A DNA stretch of 49,857 nucleotides, taken from the sequence record OQ680139.1; one strand, given 5' to 3'. Made by a program: the position numbers and the translations under genes. The notes beneath the pieces are model-generated. The model did not search any database. It worked only from the letters and a program-made list of their open reading frames with translations, and was not told the origin of the DNA. Shown here one piece after another: positions 27,482 to 49,857 of this stretch. The stretch comes from Escherichia phage PH1062. Position 1 is the stretch's first letter; the number at the start of each line of letters is the position of its first letter.

Positions 27482-27690
27482 CGAACGATTTCGAATTTAG
27501 CCATTATGACGCCAAGGCTTTTTATCATAAGAGCTTCACCTATCGTCTTCACTATGTACTCATTGCCATCAACCTTGATGTAGTATGAGCCATTAAAGCG
27601 AGTGATTGGCTTAGCCTTGTATATCCCACCATTCACGACTGAAAGGTTGTGGTGATTGGCTTGCCTTACATACACACATTTTATAAGCAT
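27463..27690 (-). CDS. Hypothetical protein
   Basis: 75 aa ending ...NSTNC. Confidence 0.5.
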   Translation of the reverse strand: MLIKCVYVRQANHHNLSVVNGGIYKAKPITRFNGSYYIKVDGNEYIVKTIGEALMIKSLGVIMAKFEIVRNSTNC

Positions 27691-28256
27691 TAATGCTCAC
27701 CATTCAGGAGAGATTTCGCTTTCCGGTAGAACTGGATGGCCTTCTCCACCTCATCGGCATCATAGCCATGAATCATGTCTGAGCTTGCCTGCAATTTGCT
27801 ATGAGATTTGCGCTCAACCGATCTCCATGAGTCGCACCACTTGTGAATGTCTCTCCCATACATGCCCACCAGGTATGGGTGTGCATATATCTTGTCACCA
27901 ATAAGGCAAATGATTCCAGCGTCCTGTAGTGATGGTAGGATGTTGTCAATCAGGTTATTCATTACTCCATTACGCTCGACGAACGGCTGGACCTTTCTGA
28001 TCGCCTCATATGTTGAGCGAACTCCCACAACGCCTTTTCCATTTATCGCTTGCTTCCAGATATTTTCAACCACGACGCATTGTTCACGATTTAGGTTTGC
28101 GCGACGCATAACTTCTACTTCGCACCAGTACTTTTGTGACTGTCGGTATCCGTTAGCATTGATTGCAATTCGTAGTGGTGGAAGCCCATCTTCCGTAGCA
28201 ATCTTCATAATCTGCTCATCTGTCAGCTTCTCTTCGTTAAAATCAAACATCCCCAT
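27690..28256 (-). CDS. Short paralog of the 30528..32111 NTPase (shares its N- and C-terminal domains, lacks the P-loop core)
   Basis: N-terminus MGMFDFNEEKLTDEQIMKIATEDGLPPLRIAINANGYRQSQ and segment INGKGVVGVRSTYEAIRKVQPF...LIGDKIYAHPYLVG match both ends of the 527 aa protein. Confidence 0.6.
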   Translation of the reverse strand: MGMFDFNEEKLTDEQIMKIATEDGLPPLRIAINANGYRQSQKYWCEVEVMRRANLNREQCVVVENIWKQAINGKGVVGVRSTYEAIRKVQPFVERNGVMNNLIDNILPSLQDAGIICLIGDKIYAHPYLVGMYGRDIHKWCDSWRSVERKSHSKLQASSDMIHGYDADEVEKAIQFYRKAKSLLNGEH

Positions 28257-28777: not shown

Positions 28778-28819
28778 AGATATTACTCCTGATTGGTGGT
28801 CTTCGTTAAGATGGGTGCA

Positions 28820-28848
28820 ATACTACCAGTGTGGTTACATGTTATCAA
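28820..28848 (-). promoter_or_regulatory. Sigma70-like early promoter TTGATA-17-TAGTAT (leftward)
   Basis: Hexamers at 17 bp spacing ~45 nt upstream of 28777; spacer carries GTGGTTACATGT, also found at 47464-47475. Confidence 0.5.
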
Positions 28849-29068
28849 GTGTTATTGATGCAAGTGTTCGACTTAGTTACGTTTTGCGACCTCTCGCCCC
28901 AGATATAGCTCAATGTAAAGTCTGCGTATAGTTTGTAGATAAGTATTTTTAGCAAATGGGCCCCTACATGACCTTTTATTCCTACAATGTCGTCATATTC
29001 CTACAGGTGTAGGAAAATATCATAGAAAACTATCGCAATATCACATATCCACTATCTACATTATCTAC

Positions 29069-29145
29069 ATATATATATATTAATAATAATAATATAGATA
29101 AATGGTTATTATATAAGGATATTTTAATGTAACCATGGCGTAATT
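29069..29145. repeat. AT-rich conserved block, copy 1
   Basis: (AT)n, AATAATAATAA, GATATTTTAATGTAAC and GCGTAA in the same order as at 47687-47757. Confidence 0.7.
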
Positions 29146-29410
29146 CAGCGTGATATGCGTACATGATTCCTACGGAGTGCTGGTGTGTCTACATGGCATA
29201 ACATGCATAACGCGTATGCGCTAGAAACGTGTGGCGGGAAAGTCCTACCAGGAGATCAAGGGATCAGATCTCACCCCATCATTCCCCCCATCAATGAATC
29301 ATTGCTCAATTCGCAACAATCGAAAACATCATTGCAAACGATGCAATATTGCTATATGTGCAATAGTGAAGTGAATTATTGCAATAGCTGCAACAATCCA
29401 TAAATCGAAC

Positions 29411-29456
29411 GAATAGCACTTTTTGCTAAAGACATAAATCATCATTCTGGTAATAT
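29411..29456 (+). promoter_or_regulatory. Family promoter I (rightward): element, 20 bp, TAATAT
   Basis: GAATAGCACTTTTTGCTAAA on the plus strand; first rightward-oriented copy after the AT-rich region. Confidence 0.5.
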
Positions 29457-29642
29457 GTATCTCAAGGAAGCAGTGAAGCGAACGCCAAGTAGCTACTTCC
29501 CAGAAGTCGAATCGTCCAGATGAAAAATGCTGGCGAGTGTTGAGAAAGGGCACGTTGAGTCACTTCCGAACAGGTAAACTCCTAGACACCTTCTCCGGCA
29601 GCAAAGTCTGACCGGGTTCTTCGAAAAAGCAGTGAAGGTATT

Positions 29643-29688
29643 GAATAGCACGAAATGTTAAAACAGAAGTGAAGAAAGCAGGTATAGT
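29643..29688 (+). promoter_or_regulatory. Family promoter I2 (rightward): element, 20 bp, TATAGT
   Basis: GAATAGCACGAAATGTTAAAA; 126 nt upstream of 29815. Confidence 0.5.
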
Positions 29689-29814
29689 CAGTACATAGAG
29701 AACGGGGTGGGAAGTAAAGAGCCGAACGGCCTCCTGATGGAACAGGATAACCACTAAAGCAGAGATGACATCAAAGCGAACCTCTAGCAAAGCACAGTAA
29801 ACCATTGACGAGAG

Positions 29815-30527: not shown

Positions 30528-32111
30528 ATGTTTGATTTCAACGAAGATAAATTGTCAATCGATCAGGTCATGGCTGTAGCCGCTGCCGATAACCTGCCAC
30601 CTCTACGCGTAGCAATCAACGCGAACGGGTACAGGCAAAGCCAGTCATTCTGGAAAGCCCCAACAGAGATTGACTCAGGCGGTGACAAATATCCGGTAAT
30701 TTCACTTGGTAACGATTATGATGTCGTTGGTAAACTGTCAAGCAATGCCGCTCGTTCTGTTCAGTTCCCCGAGTCGTCCGCTTACATGCATTTCCTCGGA
30801 TGCATATCAGCCGCCATGCTGGGCCGATTTACGGTTGAGTATCACGGAACACAACAGCCTACCGCGCTGTACGTCGTAACCAGTCAGCCGCCATCGACGG
30901 GTAAATCAGCCATTAACTCACTTTCGCTGGCCCCGATGATCGCAGAGACTGAGCGACTCAACGAGATCAGAAAGCGTGACCGCAAGAAGATTATGGCTAA
31001 GCTCTCCGCTCTATCCAAGGAGATGAAGCAGGAGAAATCACCATCTGATATGGCGGCTCTGTTTGAGGAGAAAGAGGAGCTTGAAGAAAAACTTGAACGA
31101 CTCTGTGACATCGTTTTCCCCGTATCCGACACCACGCCGGAAGGTCTTGCGCGAATCAACAACCGCCAGGGAAACTTTGCAGTGATCTCGGATGAAGCAA
31201 CGAGCGTGAACTCACTGTTAGGCATGACCTATGGTGACGGCTCAAAGAAAACGAACAGCGAGCTTGTGCTTAAGGCGTGGGATGCTGGTAACGTATCTAT
31301 CGCCCGTGCGAACGCAGACAATAACATGAGCTTCATTGCGATGGGCTGCATATCTGTAATTGCACAGGATGAAACAATCAACGCGATCATGAATGCTGGT
31401 GCGCGTGGTATCGGTGTGTCAGAACGTTTCTTGCTTGTGCGTGAGAAGTCATTCCTTGGCGAGCGTGTATTCGTTGACGAAAAAGGAGAATCAACATACG
31501 AGCCTATTGATGGCGGACTCAAGGCGGACTACTTCCGTCTGGTCCATGAGATCATGAGCGAACACGAAGTCAACCTGACAGTAAGCACGTCGGCGATGAA
31601 ATATCTCAACCGTGCGCGTCAGGATATGGAACCTCACCTTGCGGACGGCGGGAAGTATTCACACACAATGCTTCGCGGCGCGCTGGGTAAGTTCGATAAG
31701 CAGGCTATCAGGATCGCGGCTGTTCTTCACACTGTGCGTAACTGGTTTAATCCCAATGGCGGGAGTCCGCAGAAGTCCAGAGAGATTGAGCTTGACACAA
31801 TGCAGGAAGCGGTAATTATGTTCCAGGAACTGAGTAAGACTTATCTGTCATCTGCAAACGCTGCTGGTCATGCTGGCGACCATGCGGAGATGAATAAGCT
31901 GATCGATATTCTGATCAAGCAAGGTAAGAACGGGAAAGGCGTTGTAGGTGTACGATCCCTATATGAAGCGGCTCGCAAGGTTAAACCCTTTGAAGGGCAA
32001 AGTGGTGTAATGACTCGCATCAAAGATCACCTGATCCCTATGCTTGATGAGAAGAACTACACGTGCCTGATTGGTGATAAAATTTACATTAATCCGCGAC
32101 TGCTGGGGTAA
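30528..32111 (+). CDS. P-loop NTPase of unknown function (putative replication-associated ATPase)
   Basis: 527 aa; Walker A QPPSTGKSA, Walker B-like FAVISDEA; termini shared with 27690..28256. Confidence 0.55.
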   Translation: MFDFNEDKLSIDQVMAVAAADNLPPLRVAINANGYRQSQSFWKAPTEIDSGGDKYPVISLGNDYDVVGKLSSNAARSVQFPESSAYMHFLGCISAAMLGRFTVEYHGTQQPTALYVVTSQPPSTGKSAINSLSLAPMIAETERLNEIRKRDRKKIMAKLSALSKEMKQEKSPSDMAALFEEKEELEEKLERLCDIVFPVSDTTPEGLARINNRQGNFAVISDEATSVNSLLGMTYGDGSKKTNSELVLKAWDAGNVSIARANADNNMSFIAMGCISVIAQDETINAIMNAGARGIGVSERFLLVREKSFLGERVFVDEKGESTYEPIDGGLKADYFRLVHEIMSEHEVNLTVSTSAMKYLNRARQDMEPHLADGGKYSHTMLRGALGKFDKQAIRIAAVLHTVRNWFNPNGGSPQKSREIELDTMQEAVIMFQELSKTYLSSANAAGHAGDHAEMNKLIDILIKQGKNGKGVVGVRSLYEAARKVKPFEGQSGVMTRIKDHLIPMLDEKNYTCLIGDKIYINPRLLG

Positions 32112-39931: not shown

Positions 39932-39968
39932 AGTATTAAATGCCTTTCATGTTCGTTCGATTGACGTT

Positions 39969-40012
39969 ATAATAACAACCATCGAAACCAATGTTTAACA
40001 AAAAGTGCTATT
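39969..40012 (-). promoter_or_regulatory. Family promoter N: element, 18 bp, TATTAT, upstream of helicase operon
   Basis: AATAGCACTTTTTGTTAAAC; lies in the divergent region between helicase and 40024..40497. Confidence 0.5.
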
Positions 40013-40023
40013 GAGGTGATAAA

Positions 40024-40497
40024 ATGAATGCAACTGATAAGCGTACTCTTAACGGTAACAACGGAACTATCCGCACGGAAGATAAGAAGCAGCGTAAGCG
40101 ACCGTCAGGTTACTATGTTCTCAAGGATGAAGTAAAGGCCGGATTAAGAGCGCGACTTGATATTGTATTTGAGTTCTACGGCAGCAAGGCGAATATGGCG
40201 AAGCAATTAAAAGTTACTCGCCAGGCGGTCGAAGAATGGTTTAAGCGTGGCATGATGTCGGCACGCGGCGCTCAACTGGCGCACAACAGATATAAGCGAA
40301 CTGGCGAAGGGTTCCGCGCTACATTCTGCCGACCGGATTTGCAATTCGACGGCAACGGTAAACCGCTGACACTGCGTTGCAAAAAGCGTCACATGCTGCG
40401 CGTCGTCACCGAGGCTGAACTAGCCACTAAGCCTGAATGTCGCTCATGGCGAAAAATTAAAGCAGCAAACGAAGCAGCACGAAAAGCTAAAGAATGA
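40024..40497 (+). CDS. Cro/YdaS-like helix-turn-helix DNA-binding protein (putative regulator)
   Basis: 157 aa; YGSKANMAKQLKVTRQAVEEWFKRGMMSARGAQLAH resembles Cro/YdaS HTH; basic termini. Confidence 0.5.
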   Translation: MNATDKRTLNGNNGTIRTEDKKQRKRPSGYYVLKDEVKAGLRARLDIVFEFYGSKANMAKQLKVTRQAVEEWFKRGMMSARGAQLAHNRYKRTGEGFRATFCRPDLQFDGNGKPLTLRCKKRHMLRVVTEAELATKPECRSWRKIKAANEAARKAKE

Positions 40498-40528: not shown

Positions 40529-41077
40529 CTATCTATCTCCGTCACACCCAAACTCACCATGATAATAATTACTGGCTTTTAAGTACGCTTCACGCGCCGA
40601 CTCCTTTGTGGTATGCCTTCCTAGCCATATTTTTTTATTATTAACCCATATCCACGCCGTGTACTTCCCTGTTTGCTTGCAGAATCCAACGCCTTTTACT
40701 CCTGATGTATTGTGAGATGGTTTTTTCATATTTCTATTGTTCTCAGATGATGACGCTTCCCTTAGGTTTTCTATCCTATTATCAGTCCTGATCCCGTTTT
40801 TATGATCTATATACTTAGAAGGCCATTCACCTTTACAAAGCGCCCATGAAACCCTATGGCATTTAACGTCGAATCCGAAAAATCTGAAAACCTTATAACC
40901 AGATTTATGGACCGTTCCGGCCTCATCTCCAGCCTTAACCCTATTAGATGTGCTTTTTACCCAAATTATAACTCCGTTGTCGTATTTAAGGTAATTCCTA
41001 AGCATATCAATACTAATCAATGACTCTTTTGCCTTCATTAAATCAAAGTCTTTGCTCATTTCATTTTCCTCATTCAT
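40529..41077 (-). CDS. HNH homing endonuclease with AP2-type domain (start may be Met at ~41059)
   Basis: YIDHKNGIRTDNRIENLREASSSEN then SGVKGVGFCKQTGKYTAWI; minus-strand gene inside a plus-strand block. Confidence 0.75.
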   Translation of the reverse strand: MNEENEMSKDFDLMKAKESLISIDMLRNYLKYDNGVIIWVKSTSNRVKAGDEAGTVHKSGYKVFRFFGFDVKCHRVSWALCKGEWPSKYIDHKNGIRTDNRIENLREASSSENNRNMKKPSHNTSGVKGVGFCKQTGKYTAWIWVNNKKIWLGRHTTKESAREAYLKASNYYHGEFGCDGDR

Positions 41078-41121: not shown

Positions 41122-42047
41122 TGATGGATATGTATCAAAAAGAGGAAGTTATACCTTACATGAAGGGTCTTTGGAGGGAAGCTCTGCAATCAATATGTGG
41201 CCTTGATAACTCATACTTCACGAAGCGACATGGGCCATGCCCGCATTGCTTTGGAAAGGACCGTTTTCGCTGGACTGACAATATTAACACCCCAGGCGAC
41301 GGCGGCGCGATCTGTAACTCATGCGGAAACGACTCAGGGATCGGTTGGTTGATGAAGTTAACTGGTATGCCATATAGCGAATGCATAAACATCCTGGGGA
41401 GATTTCTTGGAAAGGTTCCGCAGGAATACATTGTCAAGGCGAACAAGAAAGCGCGCAGGACTCCGGTAGCTGGCATCAATGTCATGATGGCAGATCATGA
41501 AGCGGTAATGAAAGTTATGGGGCGCACGGAGAAGCGTGTAAATACGCCACTAAGCATGTTTGAGTCACTGCCTACTGAATCATTCGATGTCGGCGTAAAA
41601 CTTCGTGAGGATGGCGGTGAGAGCGTATTTCACACCATACCGTGTCAACTTGTGCATGAGGATGGTCTTGATGACGAGTTTTGCAATATTTTGATTATTG
41701 ATGAAGAAGGAAGGGAGTCATTTTACGCGAAGAAATACACGAGTTGCTCAGTTGCCGTGACTGGTAAAACTGAAAAGGCGATATACTTATGCCTGAACTG
41801 GATTGATGCTCAGCATATTGCATTTCACACAAAGCAAGAAGTGTGGGCCTGTTTCACCCCTGAAAACCTCGAGATGGTTGCGTACAGATACAAAGGGGAT
41901 CGGGAGGTAATGGTGGCATGCGAACCGTCTGACAAAGAAACTTTGTATATGGCGGATGACCGACAATTAAAAATAATCATCCCGAACCCGGGAGGATACC
42001 GTTCAGGAATGCAAGCCAAGCTGTTCTCAGCAAGCGATCTGCTCTAA
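41121..42047 (+). CDS. DNA primase (zinc-ribbon plus catalytic domain)
   Basis: 308 aa; N-terminal GPCPHCFGKDRFRWTD...AICNSCG zinc-binding motif. Confidence 0.6.
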   Translation: MMDMYQKEEVIPYMKGLWREALQSICGLDNSYFTKRHGPCPHCFGKDRFRWTDNINTPGDGGAICNSCGNDSGIGWLMKLTGMPYSECINILGRFLGKVPQEYIVKANKKARRTPVAGINVMMADHEAVMKVMGRTEKRVNTPLSMFESLPTESFDVGVKLREDGGESVFHTIPCQLVHEDGLDDEFCNILIIDEEGRESFYAKKYTSCSVAVTGKTEKAIYLCLNWIDAQHIAFHTKQEVWACFTPENLEMVAYRYKGDREVMVACEPSDKETLYMADDRQLKIIIPNPGGYRSGMQAKLFSASDLL

Positions 42048-46321: not shown

Positions 46322-46365
46322 ATTATAGCAAATCACCGCATTCTTGTTTAGCAAAAAGTGCTACG
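46322..46365 (-). promoter_or_regulatory. Family promoter P: element, 19 bp, TATAAT
   Basis: CGTAGCACTTTTTGCTAAA variant; overlaps TAG stop of the exonuclease gene; followed by ATCAAACGAAGTAAAC. Confidence 0.5.
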
Positions 46366-47416
46366 CTTCCAGGATGTGCTTGAACTGCTTTTTAATCCAA
46401 TCAGGAGTCTCAAGCTCAATCTCTGGTTCGCCGTTGCTGTATGAAGGCCATACGTCATTCGCTTCGCACATTGAGAAAGTATGAATAACGCTCATGTACT
46501 GCGCACGACCAATCTTAAGCTGATCGCTACTCATGCGGTAAGCCATAGGAAAGTAAGGCTCTTTCTTCTCCTGGGCCAGCAAGCGCACAACCACAGGTCG
46601 CGTTTCCTCAAAGCATTTAACGAACAGGTCACGCTGCAATGCCATCTTGAGGTAATATCCAAGGTTGAACGCCAGGCGCGGGAACTCGGTCGGGTTGGCG
46701 CTCATTGTCGTTTTGTAATCAGTGATGACGACGATTTCAGGGTGAATCTCAGGATCGTAACCCATGCGCCGGATGGCTTCTGGATCATTAATGATGTCAA
46801 CATGGTCAAGTCGCACCTTGACTTTAACGCCACAGATTACGCCGAACAAAGAATACTCACGGAATGCCGTTTCGCTGTTCATGCAAGCGTTATGCTCAGG
46901 AATCATTTCAAGAACCTGGCGCATACTGACGCAAGCGTCGTAGTCTTCCGCCTTAACCAGTTCCACGCCATCTGCCCACGCCTGACATTGTGCGATCATA
47001 TCAATCAGCCACATGACGTTGAGGTCTTCGCCGCAATCAACCATCATCTTGATCAGTTCTGGATATTGCTTGCCGCTTGTACCAGTCAGGCCAAATGATT
47101 TTAATTTCGTTGCCAATGCCGCCTGGCTAGTGATTACGTTTTCAATCTCGCTATCTTTCGGTGCGCGGCGATACTTGCGTTCAAACAGTGCCTTACTCTC
47201 GAAATTGGTATGCGACTGCGTACCGAAGACAAGTGCCTTAGTCGTCGAGTTCATTTCAAACTTCCACGCCGCAGGGCAAGTACTGTGGATCTTGCTGAGT
47301 GACGATCCTGATACGTACTTGGCGGTCCATTCGTCTTTGCTGTGATAGAAATCGTTGCTCATTTCTTCTGACGTGAAATATTGAAAAAGTGGCTTAGTCA
47401 TCTCTTTAATCCTCAT
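46361..47416 (-). CDS. PD-(D/E)xK family exonuclease (RecE / lambda-Exo-like partner of Erf)
   Basis: 351 aa; IVVITDYKTT fits the D-x(n)-(D/E)-x-K core. Confidence 0.5.
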   Translation of the reverse strand: MRIKEMTKPLFQYFTSEEMSNDFYHSKDEWTAKYVSGSSLSKIHSTCPAAWKFEMNSTTKALVFGTQSHTNFESKALFERKYRRAPKDSEIENVITSQAALATKLKSFGLTGTSGKQYPELIKMMVDCGEDLNVMWLIDMIAQCQAWADGVELVKAEDYDACVSMRQVLEMIPEHNACMNSETAFREYSLFGVICGVKVKVRLDHVDIINDPEAIRRMGYDPEIHPEIVVITDYKTTMSANPTEFPRLAFNLGYYLKMALQRDLFVKCFEETRPVVVRLLAQEKKEPYFPMAYRMSSDQLKIGRAQYMSVIHTFSMCEANDVWPSYSNGEPEIELETPDWIKKQFKHILEA

Positions 47417-47434
47417 TTGTTGTTGATGTGGGTA

Positions 47435-47462
47435 ACTATACGCGCTTGGTTGCCTTAGTCAA
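47435..47462 (-). promoter_or_regulatory. Sigma70-like early promoter TTGACT-16-TATAGT (leftward)
   Basis: Hexamers just upstream of 47416; GTGGTTACATGT abuts the -35. Confidence 0.5.
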
Positions 47463-47686
47463 GTGGTTACATGTAGATATTTGTAATCACGTGTATGCAA
47501 TGGCGTTAGTTACATAAAATGGCTATCCAGCCCAGCTATGGCTTGATGTAAACATCGTGTATATCGTGTATACCACTTTTCGCGGATGGTGCATTAGTGT
47601 ATGCGTGATTAGATACTGTATAAATATACATATTAGAAATTTATAAGCGGAATACTCTATAGAAGTAGTTACACGATATACACAGT

Positions 47687-47757
47687 AATATATATATAAT
47701 AATAATAAGAGTAAAAGGTTGATATATATAGATATTTTAATGTAACTAATGCGTAAA
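47687..47757. repeat. AT-rich conserved block, copy 2
   Basis: Same sub-motifs and order as copy 1 at 29069-29145. Confidence 0.7.
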
Positions 47758-47855
47758 TCTGCGTAACAGCGCGTATATCATTTTCAGCGGAAGAGATTGT
47801 ATACATCGAGTTACATCGGTTACGTGTATATCGTTGCATTTGCATACTTGACACC

Positions 47856-47900
47856 AAAAAGCACGAATTGCTAAAACTCAATTAATGGTTGGTGTATAGT
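47856..47900 (+). promoter_or_regulatory. Family promoter Q (rightward): element, 18 bp, TATAGT
   Basis: AAAAGCACGAATTGCTAAAA; followed by CACTCAATCGAAACGAA. Confidence 0.5.
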
Positions 47901-47939
47901 CACTCAATCGAAACGAAATTCACTTGCTAAGGACTCAAA

Positions 47940-48182
47940 ATGACTAACTTCATCAAATCGGCAATCATAGCAGCAGCAGTAATCATGACCGTAGGTTGTT
48001 CTTCTGGTCCACGACCTGATGGATGGTGTGCCACTCAGGCAAATGGTGTTTGCGTAGCCAAGTGGAGGGGCGGCGTAGTTGTTCCAGCAGGTGAGGTTGA
48101 TGTTCGCTATGCTGGTATTGAATCAAAAGCAGGTGGCGGATACGGCGGTTCAGTTTCAGATCACGGATCTAAGGAGTGGTAA
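47940..48182 (+). CDS. Small lipoprotein, Cor-like superinfection-exclusion candidate
   Basis: 80 aa; signal peptide with lipobox (…IMTVGC); size and position beside tail fibre genes as for Cor in T1/phi80-type phages. Confidence 0.45.
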
Positions 48183-49176: not shown

Positions 49177-49857
49177 TTACCACACTCCAACTACAACTCT
49201 ACCTCCTCCAGGTAGGTTTACCGTGATTCCATTCCCGTTAATCTGGACCGTATCATTCACGCCATTAAAAGCAAAATTACCTTCAGCAGCCCTAACCTCA
49301 CCTCGAACAACTACGTTATTGAACTCACAAGCCCCGTCCTTGCCTATGCCCCATCCTTGAGATCCAGCAACATAGTTATTTGATTGAATTCTGTTACCAA
49401 TCTTGGCATTAGTGATTGAGCCATCCTTGATCACAGCGCTCTGGATGAACACTTGGTTATTCTCAACCACGAAAGGCAATGCCCACTGACCGGAACCAGA
49501 ACCAATCCCGTTACTGATCGCGAATCTGTTAGCGTCAAATATGAACTGACTCTTAACACCAGCACCGCTTCCAACAAGTTCCATGCTCATCCCTGCGCTA
49601 TATTCAACCCCATTATATTTTAGACCTAACTTAACACCGTACTGAGCGCCAGCGGATTCCGCATCAACCCAGGAGTCAAGTTTTTCATTCAGTGCTGCCT
49701 GCGTATCGCCAAGTTGAGCGCTCAAAGCTGTGTCGGCAGTAGTCCTTGCTTCAGTTTCGGTGGCTAGCGCCGTCTGAACTTCAGTTATGGAAGCTACAAC
49801 CTCATCATCAATCTGTGCTTTAAGCTGCGTGAGAGCCTCTACGCGAGCCTGAGTTTC
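49177..49857 (-). CDS. Central tail fibre J-like protein, 3' end (same gene as 1..2910 across the circular junction)
   Basis: ORF track 49177..49725 is an internal-Met fragment; the frame stays open upstream to the window end, and the window end equals the window start. Confidence 0.8.
   Translation of the reverse strand, partial: ETQARVEALTQLKAQIDDEVVASITEVQTALATETEARTTADTALSAQLGDTQAALNEKLDSWVDAESAGAQYGVKLGLKYNGVEYSAGMSMELVGSGAGVKSQFIFDANRFAISNGIGSGSGQWALPFVVENNQVFIQSAVIKDGSITNAKIGNRIQSNNYVAGSQGWGIGKDGACEFNNVVVRGEVRAAEGNFAFNGVNDTVQINGNGITVNLPGGGRVVVGVW
49747..49857. repeat. 111 nt terminal overlap identical to nt 1-111 (circular contig closure)
   Basis: Exact identity including the ttatgg variant of the first repeat copy. 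Confidence 0.85.

Follow-up and report, generated by a model that had tools for sequence, protein, structure and literature searches.

Why would a T1-like phage keep two similar AT-rich non-coding regions some 18.6 kb apart, and what is it that they share? The question was raised by Escherichia phage PH1062 (OQ680139.1), a T1-like siphovirus of the Drexlerviridae with Nouzillyvirus P817/ESCO41 as nearest relatives, of which the whole stretch of 49,857 nt (the window) was analysed. An initial annotation had noticed that the divergent region between the exonuclease and lipoprotein operons (R2) repeats features of another region (R1), and had proposed either two origins or a regulator site common to the early operons. 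Here we show that the two are indeed related hubs with a common cis element, and that this element spans ~200 nt, longer than was first described; between the two proposed roles one can choose only by inference. The R1/R2 pair are the best current candidates for the family's replication origins or shared control site. The anatomy favours an origin-like over a purely regulatory role, and our preferred, though tentative, interpretation is that the two cores are ancient paralogous, iteron-flanked unwinding elements, acting as two origins or as an origin and a helper site.

47417-47939, no strand: R2, a divergent non-coding region (open reading frames (ORFs) and Pfam), homologous to the T1 ST29/ST30 intergenic region
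47641-47835, plus strand: R2 copy of the conserved ~200-nt element, an origin-like block (leave-out profile, Rtp identity, 121 phage records, 26-copy alignment)
28778-29814: R1, a very long non-coding stretch between a leftward DUF7174 gene and rightward small early genes with the DUF3987 helicase
29018-29225, plus strand: R1 copy of the same element (profile match), the least stable DNA in the genome

Could two AT-rich promoter regions resemble each other by chance? Both regions are AT-rich, and their (AT)n/(AAT)n simple repeats inflate the similarity. However, the local alignment of R1 with R2 scores 91, against 22.9±2.7 in dinucleotide shuffles (z=25) and 31.3±4.8 in shuffles of 40-nt blocks, a control that preserves local AT-richness (z=12.5, maximum 56). 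Outside the low-complexity tract the similarity still scores 61, compared to 16±2.7 in shuffles, and it is kept in many genomes. A profile hidden Markov model built from other phages' copies, with the window, P817, Rtp, ESCO41 and ETEP102 left out, gave exactly two strong matches in the window, 47641-47835 (E=2.6e-50) and 29018-29225 (E=1.8e-40), and no third below E=0.05; the shared element is therefore ~200 nt long. Together with the block shuffles and an alignment of 26 copies, these matches rule out chance resemblance, to which we assign a negligible probability. As such, the similarity is not a matter of AT-richness alone, and the proposed distance holds as well, with the two copies of a shared 16-mer lying 18,613 nt apart in the same orientation and order. 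The parts of the element in R2, its outlying repeats, and its counterparts in R1 are as follows.

47667-47684, plus strand: left iterons, tandem 9-mers AGTTACACG ATATACACA of the WTACAY type, the complement of RYGTAW
47686-47708, no strand: pure A/T tract (AT)n(AAT)n, a candidate DNA-unwinding element (DUE) by its duplex energy
47712-47724, minus strand: putative IHF core TATCAACCTTTTA, an exact match to the consensus WATCAANNNNTTR inside the invariant TAAAAGGTTGATA, called from the consensus match alone
47731-47746, plus strand: 16-mer GATATTTTAATGTAAC, containing an inverted GTTACAT iteron
47751-47776, plus strand: three GCGTA(A/T) repeats at exact 10-bp spacing (47751, 47761, 47771)
47798-47833, plus strand: right iterons TGTATACATCG AGTTACATCG GTTACGTGTATATCG in 9-10-bp phase
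47503-47519, plus strand: GCGTTAGTTACATAAAA, an outlying iteron and inverted partner of the 16-mer region
47554-47572, plus strand: tandem ATCGTGTATA x2, GYGTAW iterons with a 9-bp period, the perfect inverted partner of 47670-47683
29053-29070: 9-mers of R1
29069-29096: A/T tract of R1
29118-29133: 16-mer of R1
29138-29162: three GCGTA repeats of R1
29186-29220: right iterons of R1

All motifs listed in the initial annotation are present in R2 where it had placed them. The (AT)n run and AATAATAATAA lie within the A/T tract, with AATAATAATAA limited in the window to 47698 and 29082, just as the 16-mer is limited to 47731 and 29118. GCGTAA occurs at 47751 and 47761 with an R1 copy at 29138, the tandem ATCGTGTATA at 47554 and 47563, and the two TTGCAT repeats at 47834 and 47840, while the 12-mer GTGGTTACATGT has its sole window copies at 47463, where it directly abuts the -35-like TTGACT, and at 28831. 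All of the short repeats, including ATCGTGTATA and the 12-mer, reduce to a single iteron family, RYGTAW/WTACAY, with the variants GTTACAT, ATATACAC, GCGTAA and GTGTATA. Within R2 this family is strongly enriched (GTTACAY five times compared to 0.08 expected, WTACAY 15 times compared to 0.94), and CGTGTATA has three copies there and none elsewhere in the window. Furthermore, 47731-47746 and 47503-47519 form an inverted repeat (I2) that is 88% complementary. Since the iterons are spaced at 9-10 bp, their sites fall on one face of the helix, and clustered, helically phased short repeats of this kind are what an iteron origin would be expected to carry.

The order of these parts is fixed in a MAFFT alignment of 26 copies that covers both loci and three subfamilies or genera. 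The tandem 9-mers, nGTTACAyG ATATACAyA, come first (in 26/26 copies they are conserved as nnnTACAyn ATATACAyA), followed by the (AT)n(AAT)n tract and TAA-A.GGTTg.TATATA..GAT.TT.T..TGTAAC. Next are three GCGTA at 10 bp, conserved at both loci as GCGTA..t..GCGT.a.a..gCGTA, then a short spacer, and finally three repeats at 9-10 bp that follow T.TACAy.g…T(T/A)ACAT…T(T/A)ACGyGTAT, the right iterons being retained at both loci as T.TACA..G..T.AC.t...T.ACG.GTA. Exact IHF core matches number five genome-wide, with one in the R2 core (p=0.015); the match is kept in most of the aligned copies and missing from several.

R1 also has repeats of its own. Before its block, it carries TTCCTACA x2 and the palindrome CCTACAGGTGTAGG (28979-29013), and ATTCCTAC with three copies and AGCAGTGA with two are found in R1 and nowhere else. 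A mini-cluster of GYGTAW in the primase gene (~41526-41730; 6 per 250 nt compared to a mean of 0.58) was considered as a third site and rejected, being unphased, unorganised and without an A/T tract; it is probably due to chance or coding bias. Likewise, the third divergent hub, 39932-40023, has no iterons and no A/T tract.

Might the block instead encode a small RNA or a small protein? A few records annotate a 'hypothetical protein' over it, a 70-aa ORF with a TTG start runs along the minus strand at 47669-47881, and a weak terminator-like site is present at 47760-47773. Still, the A/T tract varies by indels of 1-2 nt among close relatives, so that any ORF across it would be broken, which shows that the block is not coding, and conservation comes in units of 9-10 bp rather than in codons. 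For an RNA, Rfam gave no match, whether at gathering score or at E<=1, and single-sequence folding of both blocks on both strands is no better than that of shuffles (z -1.1 to +1.0). We consider either product very improbable.

How widely, then, is the element shared? The block was found in 121 phage records, and both copies, in the same orientation, are present in Nouzillyvirus, Braunvirinae and Rogunavirinae, so that the comparison with other genomes called for in the initial annotation bears out a co-oriented two-copy layout family-wide. The copies, taken from both loci, came from P817, ETEP102, ESCO41, Rtp, IME542, IME253, CEB_EC3a, 12210I, Msk, AN_ECEAS, JeanPiccard, AugustePiccard, N35, ES, Sd1, phiEB49, AHP24/42, Phagiculus and one uncultivated IMG/VR contig. 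Mean identity is 86% among R2 copies, 66% among R1 copies and 64% between R1 and R2 (58-73% within one genome). Judged by these identities, the duplication is old and has proceeded without concerted evolution, and features common to the paralogs would thus have been kept by selection. Compared to Rtp, 47633-47840 is 93-97% identical, where the exonuclease gene reaches ~50% and the lipoprotein gene ~75%. Searches starting from the neighbouring genes added little: the exonuclease gene led to 38 loci, mostly of T1/TLS type and alignable in the A/T tract alone, and the DUF7174 gene beside R1 to a single locus. An exact scan of IMG/VR with the 16-mer gave 75 loci, nearly all of them chance matches in unrelated AT-rich contigs and a handful T1-like. 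BLAST of the block found nothing in 5,426 complete E. coli genomes or in the plasmids of PLSDB; on this evidence the element is not borrowed from the host or from plasmids.

The blocks of T1 and TLS are too diverged for BLAST, yet R1 and R2 are significantly similar and co-oriented in these phages as well (z=6.2 in T1 and 7.8 in TLS, with 24.9 in Rtp). Each lineage has its own iteron: TGTTACA in T1 (two in R1, four in R2, none in the rest of the genome), TGTTCAC in TLS (two in R1, two in R2, four elsewhere) and GTTACAT in PH1062 (two in R1, four in R2, three elsewhere). Lineage-specific iterons that are common to both loci point to a sequence-specific reader that is encoded by the phage and co-evolves with them, and not to a host factor.

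The block persists while its neighbours at R2 vary by lineage, which speaks for the origin-like interpretation: one flank has the exonuclease, a Rha-type antirepressor or small ORFs, the other cor or a DNA-binding protein. The changing flanks also open the possibility of an architectural or recombination element, that is, a platform for IHF, H-NS or Fis, or a 'linker' whose conservation follows from frequent homologous exchange at module boundaries, with no role in replication or transcription. In line with this, BLAST matches of relatives break in or beside R2 (many end at ~47830, and others begin at 47481 or 47657), the block contains an exact IHF core, and the exo/Erf/SSB recombination genes adjoin R2. 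The genome is mosaic besides, strongly so in its replication module: the primase is 92% identical in amino acids to that of T1 and 43% to that of Rtp, whereas the DUF3987 helicase and a Cro-like regulator are 92% and 88% identical to those of Rtp and both just 53-56% to those of T1. A passive linker, however, leaves unexplained the ordered, phased iterons, the second, anciently diverged copy elsewhere in the genome and the lineage-specific iterons common to both loci, and the IHF match is missing from several copies. We therefore regard such a role as quite improbable.

What sets the two sites apart physically is their instability. By nearest-neighbour energy, the least stable 60-nt windows of the PH1062 sequence start at 29068 in R1 (-54.3 kcal/mol) and at 47685 in R2 (-56.6), with the third at -65.0 and a genome mean of -83.1±5.2; the ranking is unchanged at window sizes of 30 and 100 nt. 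T1, Rtp and TLS follow the same pattern, their two lowest 60-nt stabilities falling precisely on the R1 and R2 tracts. Across the four genomes the gap to the third site is 7-9 kcal/mol, and both tracts are over 5 standard deviations away from the mean. Exactly two extreme melt-prone sites at conserved map positions are thus an invariant of the family. AT-rich DNA of unusually low duplex stability next to the repeats is the other part expected of an iteron origin.

The most serious competitor is a site of transcriptional control only, with the iterons as operators for a phage regulator, such as the Cro-like helix-turn-helix (HTH) protein at 40024-40497, that would switch four divergent early operons together, and with the A/T tract as curved or upstream DNA or as a source of extra promoters. 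The following features bear on it.

46361-47416, minus strand: exonuclease, RecE/ExoVIII-like, PDDEXK/DUF3799, of the leftward operon (ORFs and Pfam); its start codon ends at 47416
47940-48182, plus strand: cor-type lipoprotein, Phage_lipoprotein PF24052, of the rightward operon (ORFs and Pfam); ATG at 47940
47435-47462, minus strand: predicted sigma-70 promoter of the exonuclease operon, TTGACT-16-TATAGT (promoter scan, 10/12), -35 at 47462->47457
47463-47474, plus strand: 12-mer GTGGTTACATGT, an extended iteron copy abutting the predicted exonuclease -35
28820-28848, minus strand: predicted promoter of the leftward operon at R1, TTGATA-17-TAGTAT (9/12), with the 12-mer (28831-28842) in its spacer
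40024-40497, plus strand: Cro/YdaS-like HTH regulator, a rival candidate for reading the iterons (phrog_2856 transcriptional regulator; weak Pfam P22_Cro/YdaS matches)

R2 is, as initially annotated, exactly the divergent region between the exonuclease and lipoprotein operons, and R1 too is a divergent promoter region of early operons. The 12-mer is confined to the two predicted leftward promoters, as a shared operator would be, which fits a regulator; by sequence, an origin and a regulator site need not be mutually exclusive. The -35 of the exonuclease promoter (TAGTCAA) is conserved in T1, TLS and other loci, and an iteron-like sequence is found at the same place beside it in ESCO41, T1 and L084. 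Furthermore, a regulator of the window type (>=80% identity) occurs in 128 records, about as many as the 121 with the block. Against a control site alone, the centre of the block does not sit on the predicted promoter hexamers. The -35 hexamers of the predicted leftward promoters are separated from the A/T tracts by 221 and 224 nt, and the rightward elements by ~190 nt (R2, to TATAGT) and ~320 nt (R1, to the first direct repeat), so that at ~190-320 nt the tract is too far away for an UP element. In TLS, moreover, the region is not divergent (J, terminator, recE), and the A/T tract is kept nonetheless, ~310-390 nt upstream of the exonuclease gene. Operators need no extreme duplex instability at exactly two sites in four genomes, and the regulator's own promoter region has no iterons. 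Promoter matches within the block reach 9/12 at most and are no commoner than in shuffles. As to sigma-70 promoters in the two regions overall, the predicted leftward ones match at 10/12 and 9/12, and the totals of promoter-like sites are at shuffle level (4 compared to 3.7±2.0, and 4 compared to 3.2±2.0). All in all, we find transcriptional control as the sole function somewhat unlikely. The origin-like interpretation is favoured because the tracts are the two least stable segments in four genomes and have phased iterons on both sides, because of their distance from the predicted promoter hexamers, and because the element is retained in TLS without a divergent gene.

If R1 and R2 are origin-like, which protein would read them? 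Two genes next to R1 are of interest here.

30528-32111, plus strand: DUF3987 AAA+ helicase with a C-terminal lid and winged-helix (WH) module (Pfam E=3e-39), 1.3 kb to the right of the R1 block
27690-28256, minus strand: 188-aa 'mini' paralog of the helicase without ATPase core, just left of R1

The mini-paralog keeps the first 42 residues of the helicase (69% identity) and its last ~92 (45%), and the WH module common to both has its best model match in the origin-recognition proteins Orc1/Orc2/Cdc6. That the mini-paralog retains the two ends of the helicase, together with the WH fold, indicates that the helicase ends in an initiator-like WH module. A search of PDB sequences gave no match for the helicase at E<0.1 (best E=0.12) and none for the primase at E<=1. 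A DUF3987 protein of a mobile element has been shown to be a 5'-3' helicase with a primase as its partner (PMC11724360), and a C-terminal WH domain is known from the helicases P4 alpha and pRN1 ORF904 (PMC2777425). The mini-paralog is present in many Braunvirinae, Rogunavirinae and Nouzillyvirus, left as a remnant (rtp2) in Rtp, and absent from T1 and TLS; it can therefore not be essential, and is a possible modulator. The primase does not co-segregate with block type.

As such, the origin-like interpretation would run as follows. A phage-encoded, sequence-specific protein would coat the phased iterons, preferably the DUF3987 AAA+ helicase beside R1 by means of its Orc/Cdc6-like WH module, or else the Cro-like HTH protein. 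Its binding would wrap or bend the DNA, with the help, in most copies, of a bend-prone IHF-like segment between the iteron arrays, and melt the A/T tract on the negatively supercoiled genome. The helicase could then load at the melted tract, where the phage Zn-ribbon primase would prime and host polymerase would extend. Finally, the extra iterons at the two leftward early promoters (the 12-mer) could couple the occupancy of the same protein to early transcription. Whereas the anatomy, the conservation of both copies, the instability, the lineage-specific iterons at both loci and the WH fold are observations, protein binding, melting and initiation at these elements are inferred from them.

We must however take into account several points that weigh against an origin. 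All support for that role is computational. The iteron is short and degenerate, and its enrichment, strong in R2, is weak in R1. R2 is invariant over stretches of 35+ nt, more than an unwinding element alone needs. Promoter-like hexamers occur inside the tract on both strands, both in our scan and as promoters marked there by other annotators, which also suits a control site, and AT-rich tracts with nearby repeats are typical of strong or regulated promoter regions as well. The genes around both sites are only partly co-directional with forks that would start there. As to the reader, four-lineage alignments and family-wide tblastn show no difference between the helicase WH module and the Cro-like regulator in how well they co-segregate with the block: identity to Rtp is 95% for the block, 92% for the WH module and 88-89% for the regulator, and the helicase module at >=80% identity is found in 134 records. 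T1, moreover, has the GTTACA iteron too, yet its WH domain is just 54-56% identical.

Other types of origin evidence were of less use. GC skew and gene orientation were set aside, since both are confounded by transcription direction. An oriC-like, DnaA-dependent origin was rejected: R1 and R2 contain no exact DnaA box (TTWTNCACA), boxes with <=1 mismatch are not enriched (three in R1 and two in R2, with 1.8 and 0.9 expected; p~0.25), and GATC does not cluster, with none in R2. It is also conceivable, though improbable, that R1 and R2 form an obligatory cooperating pair that is the origin system of the whole Drexlerviridae, in which the helicase would initiate by itself in Orc/Cdc6 style, its WH module reading the lineage-specific iterons at both sites and maybe bridging these by looping, and in which, in some lineages, the mini-helicase would compete for the iterons and modulate firing. 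If true, these phages would have a helicase-initiator that loads itself and a natural dominant-negative regulator to go with it, and a classic T-phage whose origin was never found would gain its first defined origin system.

Besides the shared block, both regions carry another repeat that must be kept apart from it. The 21-nt direct repeat (DR) of T1-like phages (aaATAGCACnnnTTGnTAAAA) was described in the TLS paper, with its function an open question (PMC11447400). It has one copy in R2 and two in R1 (29413, 29645), all along transcription. Sites of the form ATAGCACnnnTTGyTAAA number ~20 in the window, nearly all along transcription; examples are listed below.

47858-47876, plus strand: T1-family 21-nt DR AAAGCACGAATTGCTAAAA, a 13/14 match to ATAGCACnnnTTGnTAAA, co-oriented with the lipoprotein gene and 64 nt upstream of its ATG
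29413, 29645, 30023 and 47858, plus strand: DR examples
21922, 22320, 23675, 24500, 25374, 26184, 27190, 27462, 36089, 37403, 39994, 42111 and 46347, minus strand: DR examples

The DR differs from the shared block in having ~20 copies genome-wide upstream of genes, and it does not account for the A/T tract or the iterons. Its defining arrangement, ATAGCACnnnTTGnTAAA(A) upstream of a gene and along transcription, is found at 47858-47876 and not in the block. At the four plus-strand DRs that were inspected, a -10-like hexamer (TATAGT, TAATAT or TATATT) follows at a constant 21-22 nt; in R2 it is TATAGT at 47895-47900, 21 nt downstream. This spacing is too long for a normal -35 and suggests a distinct promoter class, perhaps one in need of an activator or a modified RNA polymerase. 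The R2 copy, which is not part of the shared block, is likely an element of the promoter that serves the lipoprotein operon.

Several observations on R1 and on the genome at large stand by themselves. The stretch 29300-29396 has at least eight TTGCAA/TGCAAT-type repeats at ~10-12-nt spacing, and together with the adjacent DR it is the most widely conserved part of R1 in the family (80-88% identity). The GenBank records of Rtp, Rogue1, ESCO41, XT34 and IMM-001 start or end within the window equivalent of 29348-29393; these ends may be pac-related or may simply reflect the way T1 is numbered by convention. If there were a second pac at R2, this would be at odds with the report of a single submolar pac fragment. 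Further along in R1, a segment of ~90-95 nt (29509-29598; GAATCGTCCAGATGAAAAATGCTGGC…GACACCTTCTCCGG) shares 85-89% identity with intergenic DNA from coliphages that are unrelated to PH1062, namely Vequintavirinae A7_1 and A73 and Seuratvirus WildeMaa, and the Rtp segment also aligns closely. It has at least one hairpin with a compensatory change (CCAG…CTGG to CCGG…CCGG), has no Rfam match, and as a single sequence folds no better than shuffles; it may be an undescribed non-coding RNA or 5' leader that moves between phage families. The repeats AGCAGTGAAG / AGAAGTGAAG at 29472-29481, 29632-29641 and 29666-29675 flank this segment and the second DR of R1. An HNH-AP2 homing-endonuclease gene lies at 40529-41077, between the Cro-like regulator and the primase. 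The window appears to be a complete, circularly permuted genome, opposite in orientation to the T1, Rtp and TLS records; in these three, the counterpart of R1 is the divergent region where the maps end. Judging from gene order compared with T1 and Rtp, the genome was apparently opened within the tail-tip J gene, which is split over 1-2986 and 49177-49857. The exonuclease region is ~91% identical to that of P817/ESCO41 by BLAST.

T1 belongs to the original set of T-phages. Its relatives are coliphages that are abundant, notorious for contaminating laboratories, and considered as candidates for therapy. What this analysis adds is two precisely bounded ~200-bp candidates that are conserved in the family and have an internal grammar, with proteins nominated to read them. 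If confirmed, they would define the specificity of origin and initiator for a family of phages that is very mosaic, explain a non-coding block that is more conserved than the genes beside it, and supply parts for the engineering of T1-like phages. If R1 and R2 prove to be a regulatory hub instead, the control site that the early operons have in common would still have been located. Published papers state that no origin is known for TLS or SU57 (PMC11447400, PMC7718038), so that among T1-like phages the role is vacant, and the TLS paper states that no iteron-like repeats occur anywhere in that genome (PMC11447400). In the literature we found no description of the two-copy element, older subscription papers on T1 and Rtp being outside the search, and a look for transcriptomes or mapped transcription start sites of T1-like phages likewise gave nothing. 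While this type of element is well known, here it would fill a long-standing gap for a classic phage family.

So what does the pair most resemble? A close likeness in layout is found in the Pri-Rep-ori module of phage-inducible chromosomal islands (PICIs) and Staphylococcus aureus pathogenicity islands (SaPIs), where an AT-rich putative melting site has a set of short iterons on either side, and where a helicase-type initiator encoded by the element reads element-specific iterons (PMC6092414). There, however, the origin is immediately downstream of rep, whereas PH1062 has two copies per genome, 18.6 kb apart and in divergent early-promoter regions, with iterons that are heterogeneous RYGTAW variants and a reader that is only a candidate. 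SPP1, like PH1062 a virulent siphovirus and one that packages from pac, offers a parallel for two discrete initiator-bound regions: its G38P binds oriL and oriR, and the iterons of oriL adjoin an AT-rich DUE (PMC5737612). In contrast to the intergenic elements of the T1 family, oriL lies within gene 38, and the replisome organiser that binds it, G38P, is unrelated; the SPP1 system has been reconstituted in vitro. In P4, the element-encoded alpha is a helicase with a C-terminal WH origin-binding domain (PMC2777425), which recalls the proposed helicase reader, but alpha combines primase, helicase of the superfamily 3 (SF3) fold and WH in one protein, while the primase and the DUF3987 helicase of T1-like phages are separate genes and DUF3987 is not SF3.

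The lambda origin, oriC and iteron plasmids share with R1 and R2 the phased repeats beside a weak AT-rich segment, possibly with an IHF-type bend; the element differs from oriC in lacking exact DnaA boxes and GATC clustering, and from lambda in lying outside the initiator gene. P4, for its part, also has two separate cis regions, ori and crr, with the same iteron TGTTCACC. Its resemblance to the TLS iteron TGTTCAC is best taken as a lead and not as a test.

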